From Candidatus Altimarinota bacterium (GTDB taxonomy: Bacteria > Patescibacteriota > Gracilibacteria > BD1-5 > UBA6164), in assembly GCA_027062145.1 (NCBI GenBank), contig JAMOTX010000050.1:1-34688 (forward strand): a DNA stretch of 34,688 bases. Reading direction: 5' to 3'. Each line of letters starts with the position of its first letter. Positions within the stretch are counted from its first letter, which is position 1. Below the pieces are notes generated by a model. It searched no databases. It had not been told where the DNA came from and saw nothing but the letters and a program-made list of their open reading frames with translations. Below are positions 1 to 34,688 of this stretch, piece by piece. Both the position numbers and the translations under genes were made by a program.

Positions 1-90
1 TTATATAGTAGGTATATTTACATATCACTTGTAATTCATAAACTCTTTTCTAACCTCTTTCATTAGAGAATACCATAAAAAATATTAATT

Positions 91-131
91 AAAAAAAGCT
101 AGAAGAAAATTATTTTCTTCTAGCTTTTTTT
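91..131. terminator. bidirectional terminator hairpin
   Basis: A7-gctagaagaaaa (98-109)-tta-ttttcttctagc (113-124)-T7. The TAA of the PH-domain gene (110-112) is the loop. Confidence 0.7.
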
Positions 132-661
132 GTTTTATATTTAGCTATATTATCAGTATGTCAGTTTAGTTTTATATAATCTAAAACTCTTCATAAATAG
201 TTTGCAATATCAGAGTGTCATTTTACTCATCTGAAATATATATTTGAATGTTCATCAGTTCACTGAATCATTATATTTCAGTATCAAAATATTGAATCAT
301 AAAAATTTCTTCTAGTTGTTGTTGCTTTAACGTCAGTTAGCTTTAATTCCTTTCTATGTTGTGTAAATATACCACTTCTAACAAGTTTTAATACTCTTCT
401 TGTAGTTATTATTATCCATGTATTAGAATATTGTCTTTTAAGATATATAAATAGTATTAATAGAGTAAAAATTGATATTATAGTAGATACTATATATGAA
501 TCTAAAAAATATTTTATACTAATAAATAATATAGCACTCAATATAATGTATACTATAAAAAGATGAGATTTTCTTATTAAAAAATGAATTATATTTTCAT
601 GTTGTTTTAATAATAATTTTTCATCAGAATATTGTCATTCAAATTGTTTTTTATCTTTCAT
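110..661 (-). CDS. membrane protein with bacterial PH (bPH_2 / YdbS-YdbT-like) domain, 183 aa under table 25
   Basis: ATG at 661. Two hydrophobic helices are followed by WIIITTRRVLKLVRSGIFTQHRKELKLTDV, typical of bacterial PH domains. The ORF-track end at 284-286 is TGA. Reading it as Gly continues in frame as DSIF-G-YGNIMIQGTDEHSNIYFRGV to TAA at 110-112. Confidence 0.7.
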
Positions 662-2480
662 ATTTATTTTTAAGTTCTTCTAAATTTATTTCAAAAATTA
701 CAGGTCTTCAGTGAGGACATGTTGCTGAATAATCTATGACAGAATCATTTAATAATTTATTCATTTCAAATAAACTTAATTTATGTCAAAATTTTATAGC
801 TGATCTACAAGCCGTGTAAGCAAATATTTTATTTTTTATTTCTTCTAAAGTAGTTGATTTAGAAAAATTTCAGCTAGATATATCTTCTATAATTCATAGA
901 AAAATATTTCATATATTATCCTTTTTGATAAAATCAGGGATTCAATTAATAATAATATTATTTCAAGGCATGATTTCAAAATCAAAACCGATGTCTAAAA
1001 AGCTTGTATTATTATTATTTAATATATCTGATTCTTTAGGGGTTAATGATATATTTTCAGCTATTAATAATCATTGAATATTATGTACATAATCATTGTT
1101 TATTAATTTTTCATATATTATTCTTTCTGCTAATGCATGTTGATCTAAAAATTTAATTCACTCTTGAGTTTCTACTATTATGTACGAATTATGTGATTGT
1201 CATATTATTTTTCATAATGGTGTATCATGTAAATCAGTAGATTTTTCTAATTCATTATTTTCCTCATATGTAGATCAATTATCTAACATTGATTTAGAGG
1301 AATCTAATGTATTATTTATTTGAGTTTGATTTATATTTGGAGCTTTATCTGTATATGGAGAGTATGCTTTAAATTTAGTTCACGAACCAGTATATCAATT
1401 TTTATGTACTGGTGCTGGAATATTTTCTCTTAAATTTTTAATACTATAATTATTATTTAAATTATCAGATAATTTAGGAGTAGTAATAAGAGTAACTTTA
1501 TTTAAGGAATCTTGAATAGAATGATAAATTGCTCTAAATATGTTTTGTTCAGATGCAAACCTTACTTCTAGTTTTCTTGGATGAACATTTACATCTACTT
1601 GAGTTGGATCCACATTTAGGTTTAAAACATAACCAGGATTCATAGAATGAGGGATAAATCTATTGTAAGCATCGTTAATTGCTTTCATAATAAGAGGGGA
1701 TTTAATAACCCTTTTATTTACAAATAAACATTGTCTATTTTTACTAGGAAAACTGATTTTAGGATCAGAAATATATCAGTTTATATCTATTCAATTCATC
1801 TCAAAATTGATTTCTAATAAATTTTCTGAAAAATCTGATCAATATATATTATAAATTCTTGTTTTTAAATTTTCACCTTTTGAATATTTAAATATTTTTT
1901 TTGAATCGGATATAAATTCAAACCCTATATTTGGATATGATAATGCAATTTGTTGTAAAAATACAAATATATGATTATATTCTGTCCTTGCTTTTTTTAA
2001 GTAATTTAATCTTGCAGGTGTATTATAAAATAGATTTTCAACTATTATCTTAGTTCATGTTTCACATGCAAAAGTCTCAATATCTTGAGAAATTCATCAT
2101 AGTATTTCTAATTTATTTCAATAATCTTCGTTCATATTTTTAGATATTATTTCCATATCAGAAACTGATGAAATAGCAGAAATAGCCTCTCATCTAAATC
2201 AAAACGTCATTATATTATATAAATCTTCTAAGTTTTTTATCTTACTTGTAGAGTATTTTTCTATTACAAGAGGTAAATCTTCTTTTTCAATTCATTCACC
2301 ATTATCAGATATAATGATTTTATCTATTCATCAATTTTCTATTTCTACTGATATAGAATCAGCTCACGCATCAATACTATTTTCTATTAGTTCTTTTACT
2401 ATTGAAATAGGTCTTTCTACTACTTCTCAGGCTGCAATTTGATTTGCTAAATTTTTATCTAATTTAATTATTTTAGACAT
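651..2480 (-). CDS. mutL: DNA mismatch repair protein MutL, 609 aa
   Basis: N-terminus is [43 protein letters not shown] (GHKL ATPase motifs). The middle fragment contains VDVNVHPRKLEVRF. The C-terminus is SATCPH-G-RPVIFEI. All three parts are in one frame (1830 nt). It overlaps the next gene by 11 nt. Confidence 0.93.
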
Positions 2481-2536
2481 TAGGAGTTTTTATAAATTAT
2501 TTATAAAATTTTAGCTATTATGTTAAAAAAGTAAAT

Positions 2537-2572
2537 AAAAAAGATTAATTGAAATTTCAATTAATCTTTTTT
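2537..2572. terminator. terminator, perfect 18+18 palindrome
   Basis: aaaaaagattaattgaaa|tttcaattaatctttttt. It contains the TAA of the 75-aa gene (2561-2563). Confidence 0.7.
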
Positions 2573-2788
2573 ATTTAAAGTTTCTGATACTTTTGATTTA
2601 ATCATTTCAGGAATGTTTGCATATGCCTGAATTATACTTTTAACTTTGTTATACATTTCTACTACTTCCATTATTGGTCATAATATTTTTAGTACTCTTA
2701 TTAGTACAACTATTAATAATGTTCAAATTATAGAAGAGAATACTATTAATACTAAGTATAATATTTCAATTATTGTTAATGTAACCAT
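2561..2788 (-). CDS. small membrane protein, 75 aa, unknown function
   Basis: ATG at 2788. Sequence is MVTLTIIEILYLVLIVFSSII-G-TLLIVVLIRVLKIL-G-PIMEVVEMYNKV..., one long hydrophobic N-terminal segment. TAA at 2561-2563 lies inside the terminator hairpin. Its start lies 17 nt downstream of the stop of the preceding CDS. Confidence 0.55.
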
Positions 2789-3369: not shown

Positions 3370-3397
3370 TTGCATTTTGTTACATTATTCATATGAT
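3370..3397 (+). promoter_or_regulatory. candidate sigma70-type promoter for rplS (TTGCAT-16-TATGAT)
   Basis: TTGCAT at 3370-3375 and TATGAT at 3392-3397. AT-rich background makes chance matches likely. Confidence 0.3.
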
Positions 3398-3442
3398 ATG
3401 GCCAATTCCAAAAAAGGAAATTTATTTTTAAAACAAATTATT

Positions 3443-3805
3443 ATGTCAAATTCTGCAATAATAAAAATTGTACAAGAAGGGTTTTTACAAGAAGGTAGAG
3501 AACAAATTAAAACTGGTATGGAAGTTGAGGTTCACCAAATTATTAAAGAAGGTTCTAAAGAAAGAATTCAAAAATTTAAAGGTTTAGTAATTAAAACAGC
3601 TGGTAAATCTGCTTTAGAAAATACTATGACTGTTAGAAGAAAAATTGGTGCCTTTGGTGTTGAAAAAGTATTTGCTATACATTCTCCAACTATTAAACAA
3701 ATTGATATTATTAGACAATTTAAAGTTAGAAGAAAATCTATTAAATTTATTAGAGATCTTACTGGTAAAGCTGCTAGACTTAAAGAAGTTAAAAAAGCAA
3801 AATAA
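3443..3805 (+). CDS. rplS: 50S ribosomal protein L19
   Basis: Contains EGSKERIQKFKGLVIKTAG...TVRRKIGAFGVEKVFAIHSPTIKQIDIIRQFKVRRKSIKFIRDLTGKAARLKE. The start is set at ATG 3443, giving 120 aa. The in-frame upstream starts at 3377 and 3398 would add an uncharacteristic extension and overlap the putative -10 element. Confidence 0.88.
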   Translation: MSNSAIIKIVQEGFLQEGREQIKTGMEVEVHQIIKEGSKERIQKFKGLVIKTAGKSALENTMTVRRKIGAFGVEKVFAIHSPTIKQIDIIRQFKVRRKSIKFIRDLTGKAARLKEVKKAK

Positions 3806-3813
3806 TTGATTTT

Positions 3814-3841
3814 AAAAAACCTCCGATTTAGGAGGTTTTTT
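3814..3841 (+). terminator. rho-independent terminator after rplS
   Basis: Stem aaaaacctcc (3815-3824) pairs with ggaggttttt (3831-3840), with loop gattta and a T-run. Confidence 0.8.
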
Positions 3842-3901
3842 CTTTTCAAAAAGTATTTTTTGAATATAATCTTTAGCAATTAATTAACAAATAATATAAA
3901 T

Positions 3902-5356
3902 ATGAATTTTAAAGATTTAAGTTTAGAAGAAATAATAAATAAATTGAACTCTAAAGAGGTAACAAAAGAGGAAGTTTTTGATTATTTTCAAAGTAGAATT
4001 GAAAAATATGATGATAAAATCAAATCATATAATTTTATAAATAAAAAAGGATTAAATTCTATAGATTGAAAATTAGCTTGAGTACCAATTGCTGTAAAAG
4101 ATATTTTTTGTGAAAAATGAGTAGTTACTACTTGTGCGTCAAATATGTTAAAAGATTTTGTACCACCTTATGATTCTGCTGTTATTGAAAATTTAAAAGA
4201 TGCTTGAATGAGTAGTCTTTGAAAAGTAAATATGGATGAATTTGCAATGGGTTCTACAAGTGAATCTTCGGTTATTCATACTACAACAAATCCATGGGGA
4301 ACTGATAGAATTCCAGGTGGTTCAAGCTGAGGTTCAGCTGCTTGTGTTGCAGCTTGATTAGCTCCTGCAGCACTTTGAACTGATACTGGGTGAAGTATTA
4401 GACAGCCTGCATCTATGTGTGGTATAGTTTGATTTAAACCAAGTTATGGTAGAAATAGTAGATATTGAACTATGGCTATGGCTTCAAGTTTAGATTGTCC
4501 ATGAACACTTACAAAAACTGTAAAAGATTCAGCAATTTTATATAATATTATGAATGGTTATGATGAAAGAGAAAGTACTTCGTTACCAGGAAAAGATATT
4601 ATTGATGATAAAATTTGGGAAACAAAAAATTTAAAATGAATGAAAATAGGTATTCCAAAAGAATATTTTGAAGAATGATTAGATAAATGAGTAAAAGCTA
4701 GAATTGATGAAGCAGTTGAAAAAATGAAAGAATTATGAGCTGAAATAAAAGAGGTATCTCTTCCTATGACAAAATATGCAATTGCTACTTATTATATAAT
4801 TATGCCTGCAGAAGTATCTACTAATCTTTCTAGATATGATGGTATAAGGTTTGGTCATAATTCTGATAAATCATATGAAAGTACAGATGAATTATTTATG
4901 AACAATAGAGAAGAATGATTTGGTGATGAAGCTAAAAGAAGAATAGTTTTATGAAGTTATGTATTATCTGCTTGATATTATGATGCTTATTTTAAAAAAG
5001 CTACTCAAGTAAGAACTCTTATTATAGAAGATTTTAATAAAGTTTTTGAAGAAGTAGATGCTATTATTTCTCCTGTTGCACCAACTGTTGCTTGGAAAAC
5101 ATGAGAAAAAATAAATGATCCAGTTAAAATGTATTTATCTGATGCATATACTATTCCTGCTTCTTTAGCTTGATTGCCATGAATATCAGTTCCATGTGGT
5201 TTCGCTGAGAGTGATGATGAAAATAAAGAATTACTACCAGTTTGATTACAAATATTAACTAGTAGATTAGAAGAACAAAAACTATTTGAAATAGCTAATG
5301 TTTATGAACAAGCTACTAAATTTTGAATTAAATGTCCAAAATGATTTGAAGATTAA
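3902..5356 (+). CDS. gatA: Glu-tRNA(Gln)/Asp-tRNA(Asn) amidotransferase subunit A, 484 aa
   Basis: [41 protein letters not shown]; amidase signature GGSS-G-GSAA with TGA at 4328-4330; [22 protein letters not shown]. The N- and C-termini are in one frame (1455 nt). Confidence 0.9.
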
Positions 5357-5424: not shown

Positions 5425-6516
5425 ATGCCACTTATTGAATGAATTGCTGAACCACAAATGTGAGATAAGGAAAAAATAGATCAAGATAATTTAGACTATT
5501 CTAAACCTCTTAATAAACCATTAGATGAAACAAAAGATGAATTAAAATCATTATTTTGAGATTTTTCAAAAGAAAAAAAAGATCCTCTTTCTGATATGAA
5601 TGAAAAACAAGTTTCTGAAGATGAATTAGATTCTTTATTAAATCTGGATGAAGAATCTATTATTGATAAAAATCATGTAAATATAGATGATTTTTCAGAT
5701 ACGCCTACTGAAGAAGATTATATGAATAATCAAAAACAATTAGAAATAAAAACTTCAAAAGAATTTCCTCTAGTTAAAACTTTCTTGAGTGAAAGAAATA
5801 TAAATGAGGATTCTTTATCTTTAAATAAAGATTGAAAAATTGATGTAAATGCTATTGAATGACTAGGTTATGAAGATAAAGAAATGTTGACATGATTATT
5901 AGTAAATATCGAGTGAGATAATAGAGATCAAAACAGAATAGATTTTTCTACAAATATTAAAAATATTCAAGAATTTAGTGAATATGATTTAACATTTTGA
6001 GATCAATGATTTGATAATGGTGTTTTAAATAGGATTTGAGGAAATTATATTGATATTCCTGATGCATCATGAAAAATAGATGTAACAAAAAATATTTCTA
6101 CTTCAATTGAAATTACTAAAAATGAAATTTTAAAAGAGGCTAAAAATGTTAAACCTGATTCTCAAACTTATAAGACAGCAATTGCTAATATTGAATCATG
6201 AAATTTACAAAAACAATTAGAATGAATAAATAGCTTATATTATTTAGCATTTTCATCTGAAGGTAAACTATGAGCTAAAGAGTCTTTAAGTATTCATAAA
6301 AATAAAAGAAAAAAAGAATTAATAAATGATGCTAATGTATTAGAAGATAAAATTCAAATTGCTTTAAATAATAATGATCAAAAAGAATTAAAAAAATTAG
6401 ATATTCAAAAAGATGTTATTATTTTCGAAGTAGAAGAATTAGTAAAATGAGATATTTTTGAATCAGGTGAATTAGATAAAATGGAGGAAAATTTAGAAAA
6501 AGAAAAACAAGATTAG
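5425..6516 (+). CDS. acidic hypothetical protein, 363 aa
   Basis: ATG at 5425. It is in frame with ORF-track 5596..5835 and open through many TGA codons to TAG at 6514-6516. The sequence is D/E-rich, has a repeated GKIDV motif and a K/E-rich C-terminus. I recognise no family. Confidence 0.7.
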
Positions 6517-6533
6517 TCTTGTTTTTCTTTTTT
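6501..6533. terminator. bidirectional terminator shared by convergent genes
   Basis: Stem agaaaaacaaga (6501-6512) pairs with tcttgtttttct (6517-6528), with loop ttag. Both convergent stop codons lie in the loop. Confidence 0.7.
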
Positions 6534-7988
6534 ATTGAACCATAAAATAATAAATATTAATATTATAAAATATAAAATTTCATAATGAGTTTTATATATT
6601 CATGGATTCAATTTAATCAAAGCCCAATTTAAATTTCAAAAGAAATGTACAACTAATATATCCCATTTTAGGAAAATCCGTGTTATATAACCTATAATAA
6701 TTCATCATAATGGATAGACAAAATGGACAATAACACTTATAAAACCAAAAATCATTGCTAAGGGAATAGTCCAAGTAACTGCTATGTTACTAAAGGGAGC
6801 TAATATAGACACTTGACCAAAACTAAATACCATAATTGGTAAAGTAAATATTAATGCTGATAAAGTTAATGTGAATGCAGTTTTTATTTCCAGTAAATTT
6901 GGTAAGAAATAAAATATTTTTTCAAAGAATTTTTGGCTATAAATTATTCATAAAACTGCTAAAAAACTTAAATGTAGTGAAATATCATAATTGAGACTTA
7001 AAGGTGAATAAATAACCATCAAGGTTATTGTAAATATTATTATTGATAATATATTTCACTTTCTTCATGAAATTAAAATATAATATCATAAAAGTCACAT
7101 AATTGAAGCTCTAATAACTGGTGCTGTATCACCTACTAAAATAGTAAAAAAAGCTATAAAAAGAGTGATAATTATAGTTTTTAACCATATAGGGAGGTAC
7201 TGTAAGAAAAAAGTTATAAATATTATTAAAATTGTAATATTAAATCATGAAACAGCTATAAAATGAGTTAATCAAGAATTATTAAAATCTTTTTTTAAAT
7301 TATCAGGAAGGGATTCTCTTGCTCAAAGAAGTATTCATCATAAAAATATTGCTTCTTCTTTAGGGTATATTTCATAAATTGAGCTAAGAAATTTTTGCCT
7401 AAATTTAATAATTATCTTTTCTATTATATTTGGTTCATTTATTCATAAAATAGTTAACTTATATGAGTCAGCACTAAAATAAATATTTTTAGATAACATA
7501 AAGTATTTATAATTAAATCATTCAAAGCTTTTTATAGGATTTATTTTAGTTATAATATTTAATAGTGTTCATTTATTTATTTTTTTATCTAGAGTTATTA
7601 ATAATAAAATATTAGTTTTAATTTTTTTATCTCATAACTTAATTAATTTTCATATATATTGAATTTTACCATTAGTTATTTTATTTACTCACTTTATTTC
7701 TATGTTCATTGATATTATATTGTTGTAGTATTTAGTTAATATTTTTTCGTTATCTTGAATGTTGGAATAATTATTATTTGAAATTAATATTCATAAAACA
7801 AAAGAAAGTATTATAAAAATAAATAATTTAATAAATTTCTTTTTTAGTAAAAAATATCACAAAAAAAGCACTACTAAAATTAGTAGTACTAGGAGTGATG
7901 TAAAAATATTATTTATTAGATTATTAGTGAATATTCATATTAAAAAAAATATTCAACTATATATAAATATAATGTATTTAGGTGTCAT
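6513..7988 (-). CDS. comEC: ComEC/Rec2-family competence (DNA internalisation) membrane protein, 491 aa, no C-terminal metallo-beta-lactamase domain
   Basis: Competence-domain pattern: TILVGDTAPVIRASIM-G-LL...ISLHLSFLAVL-G-II...TLSALIFTLPIMVFSFGQVSILAPFSNIAVTWTIPL. Polytopic throughout. ATG at 7988 and TAA at 6513-6515 (1476 nt). Confidence 0.8.
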
Positions 7989-7991
7989 AAT

Positions 7992-8789
7992 TTAATTTAA
8001 AAATGTTTTTTCTTTAATTTCGCTAGATCTAAAAACTATAAATAATCTATATGAACAAAATATTATAAATATTATAGAAAAAATTTGTAATATATTTATT
8101 CTGATATATTCATTATCCCTAAATATATCATATTTTCAACTAAAAAATTCAAATATTAGAAATATAGAAGACATAATAATTAATCATATATAACCAATTA
8201 AACCTTTTATATGAACATACATAGAACTAATGTATGATACAGAGAATAATATAAAAAATATTATTGCATATATTATTGGTAGAGGAAATACAGGTACTTG
8301 AAAGGGAACAGGTGAAAAAGGATGATTATATAATATTTCTATTCAATAAAAAGTTTCTCTTCAATATACTTGTCCTCAAAATAATGATCAAATATATCAA
8401 ATAAATAATATAAAAAATAAAGAAATAGTTAATCCATCTATAAAATTAGTAATTCTTTCTCTTTTAATTCTAGTAATAGTAAATAGTACTGTTAAAAATC
8501 AGAAAATTGCTCAGGCTAGTGAAAAATTATAGTCACTCATTATAAAAAATTCAAAAGGATTTTTTATATATTTTAAATCGTGCCATTTTCATATTACATA
8601 AAATAGTCTTGAAAAGAAAAATACTCAAAGAAAAAACCATAAGATATTTTTTTTAAATATATTGTAATCATATCAAAATCTTACTTGTAGTTTTTTTAGC
8701 ATCCATAGAAATGCAAAAAAACAAACTGTAATAGTTAATCAAAATGTATATATTATAAATCAATTAACAGGTTCAAAAAATGGAAACAT
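7992..8789 (-). CDS. lgt: prolipoprotein diacylglyceryl transferase-like membrane protein, 265 aa
   Basis: Polytopic. FIDGLTISLFFILFI-G-YI-G-SLF-G-GQVY-G-RETFY-G-IEILYNHPF...VFPLPIIYA resembles the Lgt core (GRIGNF.NGE.YG...HP.QLYE). Its stop lies 3 nt upstream of the comEC start. Confidence 0.65.
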
Positions 8790-8852
8790 AGCTTTAAATT
8801 ACTATTAAATTATATTTATTTTATATTTTTAATGAAAAAAAGCAATGCTTTT

Positions 8853-9275
8853 TTAGGCAATGCTTTTTTTATTAGAAAAATGAATTTTATGTTCTCTATT
8901 TGATTCATATTCAGAATCTGAAGAATGTATTAAATTATAGAGTTTTGACGTTCATATATATTTTTTTCTCATTGATAGAGCTATTTTTCTAACGTTTTCT
9001 ATAGCTTGTTCTCAACTTATTGATAATATAATTGATACATCTGAACTAATATATTTTACCACACTATTAAATAATGGATGATCTTTTTTATCTGCATAAT
9101 GTTCTTTTGCAGTTTTTTCATCTATTATTGTTTTTTTTCTTTCAATAATTTTAAATCATTTTATTGATAATATTCTAAAAAATATTTTTTGAAATTCTTC
9201 TTTAGTTACTTTTATATTTTCATTTAATTCTGATTTGGGTATTGAAGGTTTTAATATTATTAATGTTTTTTCCAT
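8853..9275 (-). CDS. ndk: nucleoside diphosphate kinase, 140 aa
   Basis: MEKTLIILKPS...KEHYADKKDHPLFNSVVKYISSDVSIILSIS-G-EQAIENVRK...LYNLIHSSDSEYESNREHKIHF. NxxH(G/S)SD is the catalytic His motif. Confidence 0.85.
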
Positions 9276-9277
9276 AA

Positions 9278-9835
9278 TTATGCTCTATTTCTATATTCTT
9301 TAGTTCTTGTATCAATTACTAATTTATCTCATACCTTTACAAATAAAGGAACTTGAATAATTAATCCAGTAGTTAATGTAGCTGGCTTTTTACCACCTGT
9401 TGCAGTATCACCTTTTTCACCAGGTGGTGTTTCAGTTACTTCAAGAGTACATGTAGGTTCAAGATTAACATTAATGGGATTACCATTAAATTCTTGTAAT
9501 AATACTTTATCACCATCTTGTAAAAATAATTCAGCACCTCATAAAGCTTCTTTTAATAATTCAACTTGTTCAAAAGTAGTATTATTCATGAAATAATAAT
9601 TTGTACCATCATTATATAAATAATCATATTCTGTATTTGTTATGTCAGCAGGTGGGAATCTATCATGATCTGAAAATGTTTTTGGTATATTAGAACCAGT
9701 TAATAAATTTCTAGCTTTAATATTTATAATTGAACCTCATCTACCCATTACTTTTTGAGCATAACTCACTACTTCGTAAGGAGCATTATCCATTATAAAT
9801 TTTTTACCTACTTTTAGGTCACTTGCATTGTACAT
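9278..9835 (-). CDS. efp: elongation factor P, 185 aa
   Basis: MYNASDLKVGKKFIMDNAPYEVVSYAQKVMGR-G-GSIINIKARNLLTG...[51 protein letters not shown]. Confidence 0.93.
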
Positions 9836-23054: not shown

Positions 23055-23083
23055 TTTTCTATTGTGATATTATATTTAATAGG

Positions 23084-23364: not shown

Positions 23365-23973
23365 ATGGCTTGAATTATAGCTACAAAGTTAGAAATGACT
23401 AGAGTGATAAAAGGAGACAGATTTGTCCCTGTTACACTTCTAAAAGTTCCAACTTTAAAAGTAGTATGATTTAAAACTCTTGAAAAAGATGGTTATAAGG
23501 CTATAATCGTTTGAGTTTTAAACAAAAAAGTTGAAGATTCTACTCTAGCTGAATGAAAAAGTACTTTAAATAAAAGTGATTTTTCTAAAATAGTAGAATT
23601 TCCAGTATCTGATGCAGATATTGAAAAATATAGCGCTTGAGACACTCTTTCATTAGATGTGTTAGAAGGTGATATCAAAGTATCTATTGAATGATTTTCT
23701 AAATGAAAATGATTTACAGGTGCAATGAAAAAACATAATTTCCATGGTGGTCCTGGTGGTCACGGTTCGAAATTTCATAGAGCTCTTGGTTCTATCGGTA
23801 ATAGAAAACCTACGAAAGTACATAAAGGGAAAAAGATGCATGGTCATCACGGTGATACTAAATTTACTGTTAAAAAAGTTCCAGTTGAACTAGTTAACAA
23901 AGAAATTGGTGTTGTTGGTGTTAGATGAGCTGTTCCTGGATGAAGAAATTCATTCGTAAATATTATTTTTTAG
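23365..23973 (+). CDS. rplC: 50S ribosomal protein L3, 202 aa
   Basis: MA-G-IIATKLEMTRVI...[54 protein letters not shown]. Confidence 0.95.
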
Positions 23974-23991
23974 TTATTAATACGTACTCTA

Positions 23992-24615
23992 ATGAAGACT
24001 AATTTATTCGATCAAAAAGGTAAATCAGTTTGAGAAATTGAACTAAGTGATTTAGTGTTTTGATTAGAACTTAATGAAGGACTTATTCACAGAGCTTTGG
24101 TATATCAACTAGCTAATAATAGAATGGTAGTTGCTCATACTAAAACAAGATGAGAAAGAAGAGGTTCAACAAGAAAGATTTATAGACAAAAAGGTACAGG
24201 TAGAGCTAGAATGGGTTCAAACAGATCTCCTATTAGGAAAAAAGGTTGAGTTGCATTCGGTCCTAGAAATACTGTAAACTTTACACTTTCTATGAATAAA
24301 AAAGAAAGAAGAAAAGCATTATTTAGTGTTTTATCTTCAAAACTAGCTAACAATGATTTAATCGTTTTAGATAAAATTGATTTCAAAGAAGCTAAAACAA
24401 AAAATATGGTAGAAGTTTTTACTAAACTACCTTATAATGAAAAAGTTTTATTAGCTATTCCAGCTAAAAATGAAATGATTGAAAAATCTGCTGCTAACAT
24501 ACCATATGTTAAAGCTATACTTGTAGATTATTTAAATATTAAAGATTTACTTAAATATAAAACATTAGTTTTATTAAAAGATTCTTTAGTTAATTTAGAT
24601 AAACTTACTAAATAA
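23992..24615 (+). CDS. rplD: 50S ribosomal protein L4, 207 aa
   Basis: [45 protein letters not shown]. Confidence 0.95.
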
Positions 24616-24637
24616 TTTACTCTAAAATATATAAAAT

Positions 24638-24934
24638 ATGAGAATTTTTAGAATTTTAAAAAAACCAATCACTACTGAAAAAACTTCAGTATTAGAGATG
24701 ACTAATAATACATATGTGTTTGAAGTTGATTCTAGTGCAACTAAAATTGATGTTAAAAAATCAGTTATGGAATTGTACAAAGTTGAGGTTGCTTCTGTTA
24801 ACACTTTACATACAAGAGAAAAATTTAAGTATGGAAAGAAGAGATGAATGCAATTAAGAAAAAGATCTACTAAAAAAGCTTATGTAACTTTAAAAGATGC
24901 AAAAGCTAAAATTGATTTTTCTGTTATAAAATAA
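24638..24934 (+). CDS. rplW: 50S ribosomal protein L23, 98 aa
   Basis: ILKKPITTEKTSVL...YVFEVDSSATKIDVKKSVMELYKVEV. It continues past the TGA at 24845 to TAA at 24932-24934. Confidence 0.93.
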
Positions 24935-24956
24935 TTATTTTTTAAAAATATTAACA

Positions 24957-25805
24957 GTGGGAATAAGAAAATTTAAACCTACCACTCCTGGTAGAAGATG
25001 AATGACAGTTAATACGTTTGAAGAAATTACTACTTCAACTCCGTATAAACCACTTACTATAAAATTAAAAAAACATTCAGGTAGATGAAATACTTGAAGA
25101 ATTACAGTAAGACACCAATGAGGTGGTCATGCACAAAGATATAGACTAGTTGATTTCTTCCAAGTTGATAAGAAAGGTATCGTAGCTAAAGTTGAAACTA
25201 TAGAATACGATCCATATAGATCAGCATGGATTTCACTAATCTGTTATAAAGATGGGGAAAGAAGATATGTTATTGCTAATACTGAAACTAAAGTTTGAGA
25301 TAAAGTAATTACTGATGATAAAACTCCACTTGAAACTGGTAATAGAATGTTAGTTGCTAACATTCCTACTGGATTACAAGTTTATAACTTAGAACTAATA
25401 GTTGGACATTGAGCTTCTACTATTAGATCTGCAGGTTCTTATGGTACAATCTTCTCACAAGAAGGTGAATACACTCAAATTAAGTTACCTTCAGGTGAAA
25501 TCAGATTAGTTAATAAGAAATGTTTCGCTACATTAGGTCAAGTATCTAACACTTACCATAACCAAGTTGTTATCGGTAAAGCAGGTAGATCTAGATGGAT
25601 GTGAATCAGACCAACTGTAAGATGAAAATCTATGAATCCAGTTGATCATCCACATGGTGGTTGAGAAGGAGCTTCACCAATTGGTATGAAAGCACCAAAA
25701 ACTCCATGGGGTATGCCAGCTTTAGGATACAAAACTAGAAAGAGAAAAAACACTACTTCTAAATGGATTTTAAAAGACAGAAAAGGTAAACTAATGAATA
25801 AATAG
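24957..25805 (+). CDS. rplB: 50S ribosomal protein L2, 282 aa (GTG start)
   Basis: (M)[14 protein letters not shown]-; [28 protein letters not shown], with TGA at 25602-25604 and 25662-25664. Confidence 0.96.
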
Positions 25806-25860
25806 TAAGAATTATTAATTTAATTCTTACTCTATAAACTATATAACATAAAACTAACTT

Positions 25861-26124
25861 ATGACAAGAAGTTTAAGAAAATGACCATTTATTGATGAAA
25901 GACTATTAAAAAAAGTTGTTACAATGAATGATTCATGAAAAAAAGGTGTAATTAAAACTTGGTCAAGAACATGTACTGTTATTCCTGAATTTGTTGGACA
26001 CACATTTGGTGTTCATAATGGGAAAGTACACACTCCAGTTTTTGTTACAGAAGATATGGTATGACATAAATTATGAGAATTTTCTATGACTAGAACATTC
26101 AGAGGTCATGCTTGAAAAAAATAG
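25861..26124 (+). CDS. rpsS: 30S ribosomal protein S19, 87 aa
   Basis: [16 protein letters not shown]...[42 protein letters not shown]. Confidence 0.95.
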
Positions 26125-26197
26125 GCCCACGAGTTAGATTTATCTAGCCATCCCTGAAAGACTGGGAAATAATTTATTATTATAGCCAAATTAGCTT

Positions 26198-26524
26198 ATG
26201 AAAGCATATTGAAAAAATATTAGAATTTCTCCAAAGAAATTAAGAGTTATTGCTGAAATTATTAGAGGACAAAATGTTTGAGAAGCGTTAAATTTCTTAA
26301 AATTTGCACCTAAAAAATGAGCAGATTTATTATATAAAATTTTAGCTTCTGCTATTGCAAATGCTGAAAATAATGACAATCAGAAAGCTGATACATTATA
26401 TATAAGTACTCTTATTATAAATAAATGAATTGTTTATAAAAGATGAAATGCAGTATCTAGAGGTAGATCTCATCCAATCTTAAAAAGAACTTCTAATATA
26501 AAATTAGAATTACAAGTAAAATAA
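26198..26524 (+). CDS. rplV: 50S ribosomal protein L22, 108 aa
   Basis: [52 protein letters not shown]. Confidence 0.94.
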
Positions 26525-26588
26525 TTACTGGAAGAATAACTCCAAGAAATTAGAGTTATTAATTATAATTATTAATTAATAAAAAAAA

Positions 26589-27221
26589 ATGGGACATAAA
26601 GTTAATCCAATAGCATTTAGAATACCATATATTAAAACATGGAAATCTACTTGGTATGAAGATAAAAAAACATATAAAGACTCTTTAGGACTAGATGTAA
26701 AAGCTAGAACTATATTATCGAAAGAATTAACTTGAATTCCTCTAGGGGATGTTCTAGTTGCAAGAAATTCTAATATGATTGAAATAGTTGTTTACACAGC
26801 TAAAGCATCATTAATTCTTGGTAAAACTTGAGAAAATAAAGAAAGATTACAAACTTTATTAACTAGAAAACTTTGAACAAGTGTTAGTTTAGAAATTAGA
26901 GATATTAAAAACCCTGATTTAAATGCTAAAATTGTTTGATTCAACGTAGCAAATCAAATAGAAAAAAGAATGCCTTATAAAAGAGCAATCAAACAAGCTA
27001 TTCAAAAAACTATGGAAAAAGGTGCTAAATGAATCAAAATCAAAGTTGGTTGAAGACTTAATTGAGCTGAAATCGCTAGAAAAGAAACATTTAAAGAAGG
27101 TAATATTCCTACACAAACAATTAGAGCTGACATAGATTATTGTACTGTTAGAGCTGAAACTGTTTATGGAACTATCGGACTTAAAGTATGGATCTATAAA
27201 GGAGACATTTATAAAAAATAA
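26589..27221 (+). CDS. rpsC: 30S ribosomal protein S3, 210 aa
   Basis: [12 protein letters not shown]...[58 protein letters not shown]. Confidence 0.95.
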
Positions 27222-27267
27222 AAAATTTGACAAACCAGATTTTTTTATATACTAATTGTACTAAAAA

Positions 27268-27672
27268 ATGTTACAACCAAAGAAAACTAAATATAGAAAA
27301 ACCTTTAGATGAAGATTAAAAGGGAAGGCTATTAAAGGATCTACTATTGCATTCGGTGATTACGCTATGAAATGTACTACTAGATGATTTATAACTTCTA
27401 GACAAATAGAATCTTCGAGAAGAGCTATGGTTAGAGCGCTTAAAAGATGAGGTAAAGTTTGGATAAGAATTTTTCCTGACAAAGCTTTTACTGCTAAACC
27501 ACTAGAAGTCCCAATGGGTTGAGGTAAATGATCTGTAGAAATGTATAGAGCTCCTGTAAAACCTGGTAGAGTGTTATTTGAAATAACATGAGTTACACCA
27601 GAAGTTGCAAGGGAAGCTTTTAGACTGGCTTCTTACAAATTGCCTGTTAAAACTAAAATAATAGTTGATTAA
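27268..27672 (+). CDS. rplP: 50S ribosomal protein L16, 134 aa
   Basis: MLQPKKTKYRKTFR-G-RLKGKA...[48 protein letters not shown]. Confidence 0.95.
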
Positions 27673-27683
27673 TCATTTTAAAA

Positions 27684-27908
27684 ATGAAAGAAATAAAAGA
27701 TTTAAAACTACAAGAATTAGGAAAACTTATAGAATTAGACGAGAAAGGTTTAAGAACTGAACTTACTAAATCATCAAGAGAATTATTTTCTTTAAGAATG
27801 AAAAAAGAAGTTGGTGAATTAAAACAAACTCATTTAATAAAAGCTTTAAGAAGATATATAGCACAAATTAATACTGTTGCTACTTCTAAAGGATTAAATA
27901 TAGGTTAA
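27684..27908 (+). CDS. rpmC: 50S ribosomal protein L29, 74 aa
   Basis: LRTELTKSSRELFSLRMKKEVGELKQTHLIKALRRYIAQINT. This is an intact standard-code ORF ending in TAA. Confidence 0.9.
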   Translation: MKEIKDLKLQELGKLIELDEKGLRTELTKSSRELFSLRMKKEVGELKQTHLIKALRRYIAQINTVATSKGLNIG

Positions 27909-27931
27909 TTATTTTTAATTAAACAAAGTTT

Positions 27932-28159
27932 ATGAGAACTAAAAAAGGTGTTGTTACAAGCAACAAAATGGATAAAACAGTTGTTGTGTCTGTACATACT
28001 TATAAAAGTGATTCTAAATATAAAAAAAGATTTAGAGTAACTAAAAAGTTTTATGCACATGATGAAGATAATACTTGCTCTATTTGAGATCAAGTATTAA
28101 TTAAAGAAACTAGACCAACTTCTAAATTAAAAAGATGGGATTTAGTTGAAAAAATATAG
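27932..28159 (+). CDS. rpsQ: 30S ribosomal protein S17, 75 aa
   Basis: [66 protein letters not shown]. Confidence 0.94.
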
Positions 28160-28189
28160 TTAATTTTAACTTTTAAGAATTGATATCTT

Positions 28190-28558
28190 ATGATACAAAC
28201 AGAATCAAGACTAGCTGTTACTGATAACTCTTGAGCTAAAGAAGTATTATGTATTAAAGTGCTTTGAGGTTCACATAGAAGATATGCTTCTATTTGAGAT
28301 ATTATCGTTTGTACTGTTAAAAAAGCTGCTCCAGATGGAGTAGTTAAAAAGAAAAAAGTAGTAAAAGCTGTAGTAGTTAGAACTTCTAAAGAAGTAAGAA
28401 GAAAAGATGGTTCATATGTTAGATTTGATGATAACGCTTGCGTAATTATTGATGATAATAATGCTCCAAAAGGAACTCGTATTTTTGGGCCTGTTGCAAG
28501 AGAATTAAAAGCAAAAGGTTTTCAAAAAATTATGAGTTTAGCTCCAGAAGTTTTATAA
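28190..28558 (+). CDS. rplN: 50S ribosomal protein L14, 122 aa
   Basis: [28 protein letters not shown]...[30 protein letters not shown]. Confidence 0.96.
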
Positions 28559-28575
28559 TTAATATTAATAAAATT

Positions 28576-28926
28576 ATGAAAATTAGAACTTGAGATAAAG
28601 TTATAGTTATGTCTGGTAAAGAAAAAGACAGAGGTCAAGAAGCCGAAGTTTTAAAAGTATTTACTGATACAAATAAAATCATTGTAAAATGAATTAATGT
28701 TGTAACTAGACATTTAAAAAAACAATGAACTACTCCTGGTCAAATTGTTAAATTGGAAAAAGCTATCGATGCATCTAATGTAATGTTAGTTTGTCCATTT
28801 ACAAAAAAAGGAACAAGAGTTTGATTTGTTAAAATTGAAGAAAAAGGAACAAGTAAAAAATTTAGATTTTCAAAAATTGCCTTAAAAGAAAATGGATGAG
28901 AAGCTAAAAAATATATTATAAAATAG
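28576..28926 (+). CDS. rplX: 50S ribosomal protein L24, 116 aa
   Basis: MKIRT-G-DKVIVMSGKEKDRGQEAEVLKVF...INVVTRHLKK. Confidence 0.92.
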
Positions 28927-28958
28927 TTTATAATTTACTTATATTATAAATATAAAAA

Positions 28959-29495
28959 ATGTTAAAAGAAAAATATTTAAAAGAAATGGTTCCAGCTCTA
29001 AAAGAAAAACTAGAAATTGCTAATATTATGGAAATTCCTAAATTAGAAAAAGTAGTTTTAAATATGTGAATTTGAACATATGTTAGATCTGGTAATAAAG
29101 ATTTCTCATCTTTACAAGAACACTTATCATTAATTGCAGGTCAAGCTTGTACTGTTAGATATGCTAAAAAAGCAATATCAAACTTTAAATTAAGAGCTGG
29201 TATGCCAGTTGGTTTAAGTGTTACTCTAAGAGGAGATGCTATGTACAATTTCTTAGAAAAACTTATCAATGTTGTTTTACCTAGAGTAAGAGATTTTAGA
29301 TGAGTTAGTAAAAAAGGATTTGATAATCAAGGTAATTATAATTTCGGTATTAAAGAACATTCTATATTTTTAGAAATTCCTCAAAACGATGTTATAAAAA
29401 ATCATGGTTTACAAATTACAGTTAAAACAACTGCTAAAAACAAAGAAGCTTGAAGAGAATTATTAACACAAATGGGATTCCCTTTTGCTAAATAA
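28959..29495 (+). CDS. rplE: 50S ribosomal protein L5, 178 aa
   Basis: [14 protein letters not shown]-...[49 protein letters not shown]. Confidence 0.95.
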
Positions 29496-29521
29496 AAGTT
29501 TACTTTAATAAGAACAAAAAA

Positions 29522-29746
29522 ATGGCTAGAAAGGCTAAAATTGCTAAAGCAAATAGATTAAAAAAGACATTTTTACAAGCTATTGCTGATGGTAGAAAAC
29601 CTAAAGAAGCTACAAAAGTATATAACTGTTGTAGTATCTGTGGTAGAACTAGATGATATCTTGGTAAATTTGATATTTGTAGAATTTGTTTTAGAGAAAA
29701 AGCTAATGCTTGAGAATTACCAGGTGTTAGAAAATCTAGTTGGTAA
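29522..29746 (+). CDS. rpsN: 30S ribosomal protein S14, zinc-ribbon (Cys4) form, 74 aa
   Basis: MARKAKIAKANR...[41 protein letters not shown]. Confidence 0.9.
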
Positions 29747-29788
29747 GAGAGAAATAGTTAAATAAATTTATTTATTAATTCATATGTT

Positions 29789-30184
29789 ATGATAATAGAT
29801 CCAATCGGAGATTTATTAACAAGAATTAGAAATGCATATATGGCTAGAATTATTGAAGTTAAACTTCCTTATTCTAAATTAAAAGCTGATATTGCAAAAA
29901 TTCTTAAGAAAAATAAATATATTGTTGATTTCGAAATTATTGACGAATGAAACAATAAAAAATCAATCGGGCTTACTTTAAATGACGTAAGAACTACTAA
30001 GTATGTTCCTACAATGTCAAGAATTAGTAAACCAGGTCAAAGAATCTATATCTGAGCAAAAGATATTAGAAAATCAAGAAATGGTCATGGTATCTATATT
30101 GTTTCAACTCCAAAAGGTGTTGTTACTGGGTACGAAGCTAGAAGTTTAAATGTTGGTGGTGAATTACTTTGCGAAGTATATTAA
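29789..30184 (+). CDS. rpsH: 30S ribosomal protein S8, 131 aa
   Basis: [19 protein letters not shown]...[38 protein letters not shown]. Confidence 0.95.
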
Positions 30185-30256
30185 TCATTTAATATTATAA
30201 ACGAGAAATGATTTATATATCATTGTTCCGATTTATATTAATAATTACAAGAAAAA

Positions 30257-30796
30257 ATGTCAAGAATTGGTAAAATGCCTATTGTAATACTAGAAAAAGT
30301 TGATGTAACTATAGTTGACAACAACATTAAAGTTAAAGGGCCATTATGAGAATTATCTTTTGATTTTTCATCAAAAGTGAAAGTTTCTAAAGAAGAAAAT
30401 TCTATAATTGTTACTCCAGTAGATGATTCTGCTAGTGCTTTATGGGGTACAACTAGATCAATTATTAATAACTTAGTTATTTGAGTTACTGAAGGTTACA
30501 AAAAAAGTTTAGAAATCATTTGAGTTGGTTATAAATTTGAAGTTTCTGGAGATAAACTTATATTAAGTATTGGTTTTTCACATAAAGTTAATGTCGCTAT
30601 TCCTGCAGGTTTAAAAGTTGCAATGGATGAGAAAGCTAAAAATATTATACATATTTCTGGTGTAGATAAACAACTTGTATGAGAATTTGCTTCTAAAATT
30701 AGAGCAAAAAAGAAACCAGAACCGTATAAAGGTAAATGAATCAAATATGTTTGAGAACATATTAAGAGAAAAGCCGGTAAAACAGGTTCTAAATAA
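30257..30796 (+). CDS. rplF: 50S ribosomal protein L6, 179 aa
   Basis: MSRIGKMPIVI...I-G-VTEGYKKSLEII-G-VGYKF...[25 protein letters not shown]. Confidence 0.95.
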
Positions 30797-30823
30797 AATA
30801 TTTAACTGATAATAATTGAAAAA

Positions 30824-31168
30824 ATGTTACAAAAAACATTAAAAAGATTAAGAAGAAAAAATAGAATCAGATCTAAAATAAGTTGAACTGCTAGTAGACC
30901 AAGATTAGCTGTATATAGAAGTAATAAAAACATCTATGCACAATTAATTGATGATAACTCTGGTGTAACATTAACTTCTTTTTCAGATTTAAAACTTGAT
31001 AACTCAGGTACTAAAACTGAAATGGCTACAAAAGTAGGTGAAGAAATGGCACAAAAAGTTTTAGACTTAAAAATAACTGAAATTCTATTTGATAGAGGTT
31101 GATTTGCTTACCACGGTAGAGTTAAAGCTTTAGCTGAAGGTATGAGAGCAAAAGGACTTAAATTTTAA
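30824..31168 (+). CDS. rplR: 50S ribosomal protein L18, 114 aa
   Basis: [31 protein letters not shown]...[26 protein letters not shown]. Confidence 0.95.
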
Positions 31169-31187
31169 TTAATTAATACTAATAAGT

Positions 31188-31664
31188 ATGGCTTTTTCTG
31201 GAAAAGACAATAGAAAATGATGAAAATTTCAAAAACCAAAAAAAGAGTTCAAAGAAGAATTACTTGCTATTGATAGAGTAACTAGAGTTACTTCATGAGG
31301 TAGACAATTAAGATTCAGAGCTGTTATGGTTATTTGAGATGGAAAAGGTAGAGTTGCATTAGGAACTTGAAAATCTTGGGAAGTAGTTGATGCAATTGCT
31401 AAATCAATAGCTGATGCTAAGAAAAATCTAACTAATGTTAGAATTGAAAAAGGTACTGTTCCTTATAATTTAGAAGCTAAATATAAAGCTGCTAAAATTA
31501 TGGTTCACCCTGCTTCAGAAGGTACATGAATTATTGCGGGTTGAGCTGCCAGAAAAGTATTGATGGTTGCTTGATATAAAGATATTCTTGCAAAAAGATA
31601 TGGTTCTTCTAACCTAATTAATAATGCAAGAGCTACAATAAAAGCTTTATCTTCATTTAAATAA
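31188..31664 (+). CDS. rpsE: 30S ribosomal protein S5, 158 aa
   Basis: [43 protein letters not shown]...PASEGT-G-IIAG-G-AARKVL. Confidence 0.95.
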
Positions 31665-31755
31665 TAAATAATATGTTGCTTTGGAACTTTAACTTGGAAT
31701 ATTTCTTAGTTAATTTCTAAAGTAACATTATATATATAAATAACCTTAATATTTT

Positions 31756-32211
31756 ATGTTATCTTTAACAAATTTAAAACCTAACAAAGGATCTAGAAAA
31801 ACTTTCAAGAGACTTGGTAGAGGTAATGGTTCAGGTAAATGAACTTATTGTGGTAGAGGTTGTAATGGTCAAAATTGTAGATCAGGTGGTTGAGTAGCTG
31901 CTTGGTTTGAATGAGGACAAACTCCTTTATTTAGAAGAATGCCTAAATTAAAAGGTTTCTCTAACGCAAAATTTAAAACTATTTATAATGTTATTAATAT
32001 TTCTGATTTAGCTAAATTAGCTGAAAAAGGTATTACAACTATAAATAAAGAAGTATTACTAGAAAATAATATAGTTAGAAGAAAAACTCTTCCAATTAAA
32101 TTATTAGGTCAAGGTGAATTAACTGCTAAAGTTACTGTTACTGTTGATAAAGCTTCTGCTATTGCTAAAGAAGCAATAGAAAAAGCTGGAGGTAAACTTG
32201 AAACTAAATAA
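31756..32211 (+). CDS. rplO: 50S ribosomal protein L15, 151 aa
   Basis: [56 protein letters not shown]. It is in frame with ORF-track 31939..32211. Confidence 0.95.
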
Positions 32212-32215
32212 TATT

Positions 32216-32258
32216 AAGAAAAACCCGTGCTTTTAAGTTTGGGTTTTTCTTTTTTTTA
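32216..32258 (+). terminator. rho-independent terminator between rplO and secY
   Basis: An 11-bp stem, aagaaaaaccc (32216-32226) pairing with gggtttttctt (32241-32251), with a 14-nt loop and a T-run. Confidence 0.7.
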
Positions 32259-32298
32259 TGTATAATATATTTAATTAATTTTATAAATATTTATAAAT

Positions 32299-33567
32299 AT
32301 GCTACATAGTATAAAATCGGTATTTGAAAATAAAAATATCAAAAAAAAGATTATAGCTACTCTACTTTTAGTGTTAGTTTATAAATTATTAGCAGTAATA
32401 CCAGTTTATGGTGTTGATACTTCTAAATTAGCTGCTATTATGGAAGCTAATAAAGGATTATCTTTTTTTAGTGCTTTAATGTGAGGTTGATTATCTAATT
32501 TTTCAATTATCTTAATGGGACTTTCTCCATACATTAATGCTATGATCATAATACAATTATTAGGAGTAATTGTTCCCAAAATTGGTGATTTACAAAAAGA
32601 AGGTGATGCAGGTCAAAGAAAAATTACAAAATATACTAGATGGTTAACTCTACCTTTAGCTTTTGTTCAATCATACTGAATGATTGTTTTAATGAATAGT
32701 TTAGCTTCAGGAACTATTATAGATATTTCTAATACTCAAACTGTATTAATGGCTATGACTATTATTACTGCTTGAACAATTTTCTTAATGTGGTTATGAG
32801 AAGTAATGACAGAAAATGGTATTTGAAATGGTATTAGTATAATTATTACTGCTTGAGTATTATCAGCAGTTCCAGGTTCTATTATGGGTCATATTTCATG
32901 AGGTGATTATCCTTTATTTGTATGATTGATAATTGCAACATTATTAATAATTTACGTTATTATTAAGTTTACTGAGGGTAATAGAAGAATTCCACTTATT
33001 TATACAAGAACAGGAAGAGAAGAAAAATCTTATTTTCCAATTAGAATAAATCAAGCAGGTATGATTCCAATTATCTTTGCAGTATCATTAGTTACATTTC
33101 CAGCTATTATTGGTCAAATTTTAACATGAGATGGCTCAGGTGCTACAGCTACTTCAATAGGTAATTTCTTATTGACTTACTTTAGTATGACTAATCCTTC
33201 TTGGTATTTCATTGCAGTATACTTTTTATTAGTATTAGGGTTTTCTTTCTTTTATGTATCTATTACATTTAATACAGAAAATGTTGCTGAAAGTATTCAA
33301 AAAAGAGGTGGTTATATTCCTGGTATTAGACCTGGTTCTGATACAGCAGATTATTTAACTAAAGTTTCAGATCATTTAAATTTATTTGGTGGTTGATTCT
33401 TAGCTTTAATTGCTGTATTGCCATATATTATGTCTAAATTCATGGGGCAATCAGTAGATTTTATTATCTCTGCTGCGTGATTAATAATTATAGTTTCTGT
33501 TATTCTTGATATAGTAAGAAAAACGGATGCTGAAATGAAAATGCAAGATTATAGTAAATTCAATTAA
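32299..33567 (+). CDS. secY: preprotein translocase subunit SecY, 422 aa
   Basis: FFSALM-G-G-G-LSNFSIILMGLSPYINAMIIIQLLGVIVPKIGDLQKEGDAGQRKITKYTRWLTLPLAFVQSY-G-M; INQAGMIPIIFA; IQKRGGYIPGIRPG. Four ORF-track fragments are in one frame. Confidence 0.96.
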
Positions 33568-33570
33568 TAT

Positions 33571-33605
33571 AAAAAAAAGAACTTCACATATGAAGTTCTT
33601 TTTTT
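33571..33605. terminator. bidirectional terminator between secY and def
   Basis: A8-gaacttca-cata-tgaagttc-T7. The def stop (33604-33606) overlaps the T-run. Confidence 0.75.
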
Positions 33606-34080
33606 ATTTTAAATAATCAATAAATAATTTTCCATTCACATGATCTATTTCATGTTGAACAATTCTTGCAGGTAATCATTCTAGAATTAGTGTTTTTTTA
33701 GTCTTTTTTTCGTCCTGATAGTTTAGTTTTATCTTTGTAGGTCTTTTTACCTCTCATTTAACTCAAGGTATAGATAAACATCATTCTGATTCGATATCAG
33801 TTTCTTTTCAAAATTCTAATATTTCAGGATTTAAAAGCATTATAGTTTTAAAACTTTCATCATCCCGGTCATTAAGCATACTTACAACTACTAATTTTAT
33901 ACCATGTCATATTTGAGGTGCAGCTAAACCTACTCATCAATTATCAGGATTTTTAATATACTTAATCATATTTTTACCTAACTTCACAGCTTGCTTAAAA
34001 TCTTTATCTAGTATTTTAGATGCTGGAGTTCTAAGTATTGGATTATTTTCTCAAGTTTCTATTTTAAACATTATTTTCAT
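33604..34080 (-). CDS. def: peptide deformylase, 158 aa
   Basis: -G-VGLAAPQI-G-; SE-G-CLSIP-G-VK-G-EV; VQHEIDHVNGKLFIDY. The alternative start at ATG 34071 would remove 3 aa. Confidence 0.92.
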
Positions 34081-34106
34081 TTAATATTAATTTTCTTTAT
34101 TATAAC

Positions 34107-34136
34107 AAAAAAGACTAGTTTGACTAGTCTTTTTTT
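34107..34136 (-). terminator. terminator after the Clp ATPase gene
   Basis: A 13-bp stem, aaaaaagactagt (34107-34119) pairing with actagtctttttt (34123-34135). The gene's TAG (34124-34126) is in the right arm. Confidence 0.7.
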
Positions 34137-34688
34137 ACTATTAAATTTCATTTGTTATCTATATCTAAAATGATACTATCTCAGCTATTTACTTCTCAAT
34201 TTAATAATTTAATTGATAATTGGTTATTTATAGTGTTTGTAATTGCTCTTTTTAATGGTCTTGCTCCAAATTCTGGATCATAACCTGTTTTTGCAATATA
34301 TTTTTTAAGTGCATCTGTAAATTCTACTTTTATTCATTTTACTTCTAATAATTTAGATACATCTTGTAATAATATATCGATAATTCAAACTATTACATTT
34401 TCATCAAGTTTATTAAATTTTACTATATCATCTATTCTATTTAAGAATTCTGGTCTAAAGAAAGTTTTTAAATTTTCTTCTTTAATATTAGAAGTCATAA
34501 TAATAATAGTATTTTTGAAATCTACAGTTCTTCATTTACTATCTGTTAACCTACCATCATCTAATACTTGTAAAAGAGTATTAAACACATCTGGATGAGC
34601 TTTTTCAACTTCGTCAAATAATATTACACTATACGGTTTTCTTCTAACAGCTTCTGTTAATTGACCCCCTTCTTCATGTCATACATAT
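34124..34688 (-). CDS. ClpB/ClpC-type AAA+ chaperone ATPase, C-terminal (D2) part; 5' end lies outside the window
   Basis: [67 protein letters not shown]...[12 protein letters not shown]...[15 protein letters not shown]. Confidence 0.9.

Follow-up and report, generated by a model that had tools for sequence, protein, structure and literature searches.

The genetic code of SR1 bacteria and Gracilibacteria, listed as NCBI translation table 25, was reportedly described in 2013 by Campbell et al. (PNAS 110:5540) and Rinke et al. (Nature 499:431). The reading of UGA as glycine is therefore already known: after its description in 2013 came proteomic proof in 2014, and the NCBI tables include it. 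The proteomic study of a BD1-5 bacterium found 97 unique peptides with UGA read as glycine, 3 with UGA read as tryptophan and none with UGA as a stop (Hanke et al. 2014; PMC4032931). Using Codetta, Shulgina and Eddy (2021; PMC8629427) obtained UGA as glycine for 13 out of 15 Gracilibacteria species, the remaining two possessing release factor 2 (RF2) and missing tRNA-UCA-Gly, and they also predicted that CGA and CGG have switched to tryptophan in Absconditabacteria and CGG to tryptophan in "some Gracilibacteria". Here we analyze the code used in contig JAMOTX010000050.1 of assembly GCA_027062145.1, a stretch of 34,688 bp with a GC content of 24.4% that we call the window. The best explanation, which we hold with near certainty, is that the window is an AT-rich chromosome segment of an uncultured member of the Gracilibacteria (BD1-5) that uses table 25, with UGA as glycine and no stops other than UAA and UAG, and in which CGG is in addition very probably tryptophan. 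The window shares with table 25 the meaning of UGA, the use of UGG for tryptophan, UAA and UAG as sole stops, a low GC content and named Gracilibacteria as closest relatives. It differs in that UGA is the majority glycine codon here (51%), and in that its two CGG codons behave as tryptophan and not arginine, the other CGN codons being essentially unused.

Under the bacterial table 11, open reading frames (ORFs) of at least 100 amino acids cover 11% of the window and the longest has 192 amino acids, whereas coverage reaches 88% if only TAA and TAG are stops, with 22 ORFs of at least 200 amino acids, the longest of 714. Taking TAA or TAG as sense gave no comparable gain in ORF coverage of the window. 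The longest run free of TAA and TAG spans 731 codons; shuffled sequences gave at most 161. The probability of 714 codons without TAA and TAG is about 1e-23. Once three antisense artefacts had been removed, 46 genes were delimited, which together contain 373 TGA, 358 GGN, 53 TGG and 2 CGG codons in frame. TGA is found within 44 of these genes and is evenly spread along them, with no excess toward their 3' ends; no internal in-frame TAA or TAG occurs in any of the 46, which end in TAA (38 genes) or TAG (8 genes). The initial annotation, which had described the standard ORF track as broken by TGA and all genes as ending in TAA or TAG, was correct on both counts. Standard gene-finding fails on the window because TGA is a sense codon there (and CGG probably means tryptophan). 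The default bacterial table yields no ORF longer than 192 amino acids, and TGA read as glycine yields 46 ordinary genes; pipelines must therefore change the table, as otherwise the sequence comes out as pseudogenes or "dark matter".

The absence of any ORF above 192 amino acids under table 11 would also suit a region that follows the standard code and has been pseudogenised or misassembled, its TGAs being real stops. We give this explanation next to no credence, since a single stop codon of the three does the interrupting (373 in-frame TGA against no TAA or TAG), no frameshifts are seen, homology passes through the TGAs, these fall on conserved glycine columns, and essential ribosomal genes are affected. 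Moreover, the same sequence has been assembled independently from several samples at 98-100% identity. The window corresponds to the ENA contig ERZ27262635:k141_113593 (41.9 kb), with 100% identity over the 17 kb compared, and likewise to a Logan contig, and three further metagenome contigs are 98-99% identical to it.

The meaning of TGA was examined by alignment with orthologues of 23 genes from E. coli K-12. Out of 121 aligned TGA codons, 79 stand opposite glycine, 13 opposite alanine and none opposite tryptophan. In the same comparison, the GGN codons of the window face glycine in 76% of cases, alanine again coming second, and its TGG codons face tryptophan in 70%. In fmt (18112-19044, minus strand; TIGR00460, 255 bits), 12 of the 20 TGA codons are opposite glycine in E. 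coli Fmt, and a recount gave the same 20 TGA against 5 GGN that had been annotated initially. Solved structures agree with the alignments. The GatA structures 3h0l and 4wj3 have GGSSGGSAA opposite GGSS-TGA-GSAA (4328-4330) of the window gatA (3902-5356, plus strand; 25 TGA, 16 GGN; TIGR00132, 491 bits), and the MutL structures 9n2k and 7p8v have G opposite the TGA of IAA-TGA-EVVERP (2427-2429) in mutL (651-2480, minus strand; 28 TGA, 6 GGN; full-length TIGR00585 match, 449 bits). Both sites are among six that the initial annotation had quoted as TGAs on invariant glycines. All six are indeed TGA, with the strand and peptide context it gave, the others being CPH-TGA-RP of mutL (708-710, minus strand), two sites in rplB (25662-25664 and 25602-25604) and one in rpsS (25882-25884). 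The motifs that it listed for L14 (DNS-x-AK), L5 (NM-x-I-x), L6 (x-VGY), fusA (SQ-x-VEPQS) and def (E-x-CLS) are also present, and the residue tally that it had proposed for the TGA columns came out with glycine prevailing and tryptophan absent in E. coli.

As outgroups we used 13 genomes from Peregrinibacteria/Peribacteria, Saccharibacteria and Paceibacterota, sampled around secY; their aligned genes are free of in-frame TGA, and they therefore use the standard code. The outgroup residue facing the TGA columns of the window is glycine 69% of the time, compared with 74% for its GGN columns. At the 91 sites covered by at least 4 outgroup sequences, glycine is the majority residue at 59 and tryptophan at none, and over the TGA columns glycine leads the second-best amino acid by some 990 log-likelihood units. 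When all 64 codons were checked against the outgroups, TGA was the sole codon to deviate, with glycine at 57 of 61 conserved columns, and the remaining codons, where 3 or more conserved outgroup columns were available, all kept their standard meaning.

A comparison with 66 recoded relatives, which needs no assumed code, led to the same assignment. The TGA codons of the window are opposite TGA in 43% of cases and opposite GGN in 45%, and its GGN codons are opposite TGA in 22%; in contrast, its TGG codons are opposite TGG in 88% and opposite TGA in only 0.8%. Thus, GGN and TGA interchange and TGG and TGA hardly do, making TGA a synonym of GGN and not of TGG. This bears directly on the code of table 4 (Mycoplasmatales, Entomoplasmatales and some insect endosymbionts), in which TGA is tryptophan. 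Organisms with that table, such as Mycoplasma, Spiroplasma and some insect endosymbionts, also typically show a very low GC content (24% here) and TGA in frame. The two systems are alike in that the same codon has been captured in an AT-rich, reduced genome, by a mechanism thought to be similar (a new tRNA reads the codon through a UCA anticodon, and RF2 disappears); they differ in the amino acid, glycine and not tryptophan, and their lineages are unrelated. For the window, tryptophan is an exceedingly improbable meaning of TGA, judged by the 0 of 121 codons opposite tryptophan in E. coli, the 0 of 91 outgroup sites with a tryptophan majority, a likelihood about 1360 log units below that of glycine in the outgroups, an exchange with TGG of 0.8% against 22-45% with GGN, and relatives that are Gracilibacteria and not Mollicutes. 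The exclusion of table 4 in the initial annotation, made on the ground that tryptophan is written TGG, is in line with these results.

For each of the 23 genes paired with an E. coli orthologue, homology extends beyond the last TGA (in rplX, a variable tail of 16 residues holds another TGA), and a TAA or TAG stop follows 0-16 residues after the last aligned position. Together, the comparisons show that UGA is a sense codon meaning glycine, that UGG stays tryptophan and that only UAA and UAG terminate. The ends of these genes also speak to a dual TGA, glycine within genes and still a stop for certain genes or in certain contexts. Stop codons with two meanings exist in some eukaryotes, and low-level UGA mistranslation was seen by BD1-5 proteomics (PMC4032931), but a terminating role is highly unlikely here, given that the 23 genes run on beyond their last aligned TGA to a TAA or TAG, with the reservation of the rplX tail, and that TGA shows no 3' excess. 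TGA is, besides, the selenocysteine codon in many bacteria. However, the chance that the TGAs of the window are selenocysteine codons or sites of programmed read-through is practically nil, with 373 of them in 44 of 46 genes, located at glycine and not cysteine or selenocysteine columns, and with no SECIS or other RNA element reaching the gathering threshold in an Rfam scan of the window.

Some observations weigh against glycine as the meaning of UGA, or against the figures offered for it. About one third of the TGA codons face a residue other than glycine in distant homologues, as do one quarter of the GGN codons. The relatives share ancestry, and pooled counts and likelihoods therefore overstate independence. 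No tRNA gene lies in the window, and a search of 108 related loci with ARAGORN gave none whose anticodon is UCA or CCG. The window also has no release-factor gene, although prmC, encoding the release-factor glutamine methyltransferase, is present (15839-16690, minus strand; 9 TGA; TIGR03534), and neither a tRNA nor a release-factor gene occurs in the 3.2 kb past the window on the source contig. According to published work on the lineage, UGA would be decoded by a tRNA-Gly with anticodon UCA and RF2 would have been lost, so that nothing would compete at UGA. After the reassignment, AT mutational pressure would pull glycine codons from GGN to UGA.

The phylogenetic position of the organism was assessed with SecY. 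Among species-representative genomes, the best matches have 74-84% identity and are all Gracilibacteria metagenome-assembled or other genomes, the complete CP042461.1 and CP017714.1 among them, whereas identity to standard-code Peregrinibacteria is at most 49%. The lineage proposed initially from the code, SR1/Absconditabacteria or Gracilibacteria, is thereby narrowed to the latter. Judged by these identities, the organism is a member of the Gracilibacteria (BD1-5), and an ordinary one of the lineage with this code. Many GenBank records named "uncultured Candidatus Peribacteria bacterium" (L002, L005, L011, L016, L024, L028, L030 and others in our set) also have in-frame TGA at glycine columns, and their proteins are 67-90% identical to those of the window and group with Gracilibacteria. 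The "Candidatus Peribacteria" label of these records looks wrong, as they behave as Gracilibacteria.

With rplS left out, the glycine codons of the window are TGA (373), GGT (270), GGA (60), GGG (16) and GGC (2), making TGA the commonest glycine codon. GGA is far below GGT (60 against 270). In genes of the translation apparatus TGA accounts for 34% of glycine codons and in the other genes for 72% (Fisher p = 4e-25), and its share is inversely related to gene GC (rho = -0.81). Examples are mutL, with 28 TGA against 6 GGN, and fusA, encoding EF-G (11789-13933, minus strand; TIGR00484, 1061 bits, and E. coli alignment), with 6 TGA against 50 GGN; TGA is avoided in fusA, a highly expressed gene. 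Across the recoded relatives (L002-L077), the TGA share ranges from about 1% in a lineage at 55-57% GC to 79% in genomes at 24% GC, with rho = -0.85 against locus GC. In the 55-57% GC lineage (L039, L041, L042, L049, L050) in-frame TGAs are few and still located at glycine columns. This pattern of usage fits AT pressure shifting glycine codons from GGN to TGA after capture of the codon, and the range from 1% to 79%, tracking GC, makes a natural series for the spread of a captured codon. CpG is strongly depleted in the window, where 151 CG dinucleotides occur and its base composition predicts about 514.

The CGN box is close to empty in the window. Among 10,459 codons, CGT occurs once, CGC and CGA are absent and CGG occurs twice, arginine being encoded by AGA (350) and AGG (21). 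One CGG is codon 437 (6678-6680) of a gene for a ComEC-like membrane protein (6513-7988, minus strand; 24 TGA; TIGR00360) and falls on a conserved tryptophan position in the motif T-W-I-F-L-K-W-D, where 21 of 22 metagenomic relatives have TGG and one has CGG. The other is codon 72 (33865-33867) of def (33604-34080, minus strand; 9 TGA; E. coli orthologue, Pfam), at a conserved D-W-D-D/E position. Here 24 relatives have CGG (20) or TGG (4), and never AGR or another CGN. The TGG carriers are L008 and L005, two of the four closest relatives of the window, and the mid-GC Gracilibacteria L002 and L003, which retain CGA and CGG at arginine columns. An E. coli arginine near the def CGG (ENRDE against NDRDD) belongs to a variable loop with ambiguous alignment and was given no weight.

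This analysis was extended to the relatives by comparing 1,876 ORFs, drawn from all loci, with one another. The CGG codons of 41 low-GC genomes, aligned to low-GC peers, face CGG 228 times and TGG 78 times; against mid- or high-GC Gracilibacteria, they face TGG in 52 of 68 cases and AGA once. Examples are the tryptophan of the HPMGWDAFGLPAE motif (L032) and a SecY tryptophan encoded by TGG in 48 relatives (L057). Arginine columns still carry CGG and CGA in Gracilibacteria relatives of mid or high GC, for example L002 and L039. CGA is a major arginine codon of the mid-GC L002, L003, L009, L051 and L054 (in L002, 111 CGA against 70 AGA), and low-GC relatives have none, a sharp difference in CGN use inside one class. 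The CGA codons found in ORFs of low-GC relatives aligned to CGA, AAA, CCT and CTA, a messy result probably due to contamination by wrong-frame ORFs; as the window also lacks CGA, they were not used.

These alignments suggest that CGG is read as tryptophan in this organism, the CGN arginine box having been emptied beforehand. We consider this likely, and hold it no more firmly because the window contains just two CGG codons. Table 25, assigned to the window by the initial annotation, is right for TGA and, on the codon alignments, probably incomplete here, both CGG codons standing at tryptophan positions. The situation is like that predicted by Codetta for CGA and CGG in having a low GC content, only 3 CGN among about 10,500 codons and CGG at conserved tryptophan columns (2 of 2 in the window, and in low-GC relatives), and it differs in that CGA is unused in the window. 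The CGG data of the window back an existing computational prediction and establish no new kind of code; with the relatives, they provide clean codon-level support for the change from CGG to tryptophan in Gracilibacteria. If it is true, table 25 mistranslates two tryptophans of the window as arginine. To our knowledge, this reassignment has been predicted and never demonstrated experimentally.

The def CGG was found to be strongly retained. It is kept in 21 of 23 low-GC genomes (for example L004, L011, L012, L014 and L016), CGG making up about 3% of tryptophan codons overall, and the synonymous positions of the codons flanking it vary freely. Low-GC relatives conserve the amino acid at 1,939 columns, and a rare synonymous codon is in the majority at 5 of them. 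Apart from the def CGG, these are CGT at R97 of rplN (28478-28480, plus strand), the only CGT of the window, AGG at R115 of rplP (27610-27612, plus strand), and GTC at V421 and V424 of the comEC-like gene (6726-6728 and 6717-6719, minus strand). That the def CGG is held by selection acting on the codon itself is a tentative and rather doubtful proposal. A possible cause of the retention could be that this tryptophan codon is immune to misreading by a tRNA-Gly(UCA) with U34; alternatively, a slow codon could possibly tune deformylase synthesis.

The gene content of the window was defined by NCBIfam and Pfam family scans made on X-masked translations. Full-length matches cross the TGAs uninterrupted, among them MutL, GatA, EF-G, RNase Y, Fmt, PrmC and EF-P, and L19, ComEC-like, Lgt-like, Ndk and HD hydrolase families were also matched. 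The gene rplS (L19; 3398-3805, plus strand; TIGR01024, 92.4 bits) is one of the two genes without TGA; the L29 gene is likewise free of it. A longer ORF opposite to it (3385-3879, minus strand) was dropped as an artefact in view of the TIGR01024 support for rplS, and so were the minus-strand ORFs 25854-26189 and 28051-28638, antisense to rpsS and to rplN and rplX, which have family or orthologue support. Such antisense ORFs arise because frames free of TAA and TAG are common on the opposite strand of AT-rich DNA once TGA is sense; the spurious ones measure 111-195 amino acids, and a gene caller relying on the longest ORF would wrongly choose them.

The ribosomal-protein cluster (23365-33567, plus strand; 95 TGA; E. 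coli orthologue matches, Pfam) has the order rplC-rplD-rplW-rplB-rpsS-rplV-rpsC-rplP-rpmC-rpsQ-rplN-rplX-rplE-rpsN-rpsH-rplF-rplR-rpsE-rplO-secY. On the 5' side of rplC, beyond a gap (23055-23364), a divergent pheS is found instead of rpsJ (S10). The gene rpmD (L30) is absent from the cluster, the 91-bp interval between rpsE and rplO (31665-31755) included; lack of L30 has been reported in Candidate Phyla Radiation bacteria. On the 3' side of secY, def and a gene for a Clp-family AAA+ ATPase occupy the opposite strand (33568-34688), where adk-map-infA-rpmJ-rpsM and others would stand. The ATPase gene is represented by its 3' part (34124-34688, minus strand) and encodes 841 amino acids in full on the source contig, whose 3.2 kb past the window contain the remainder of this gene and a partial gene for a beta-CASP/RMMBL (RNase J-like) protein.

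The other genes with assigned families are on the minus strand. The interval 7992-9835 carries an lgt-like gene (14 TGA), ndk (3 TGA) and efp (3 TGA, 13 GGN), and it is followed by rny, encoding RNase Y (9925-11415; 13 TGA, 14 GGN; TIGR03319, 509 bits). From 19048 to 23054, Pfam matches identify a gene for a pilin-like protein whose N-terminus bears a methylation motif (N_methyl; 19048-19773), one for a Glycos_transf_4 protein (19776-20975; 26 TGA), a membrane ORF (16 TGA) and pheS (12 TGA). The pilin-like, ComEC-like and Glycos_transf_4 genes together look like a DNA-uptake and surface gene set, and similar sets occur in other Candidate Phyla Radiation bacteria.

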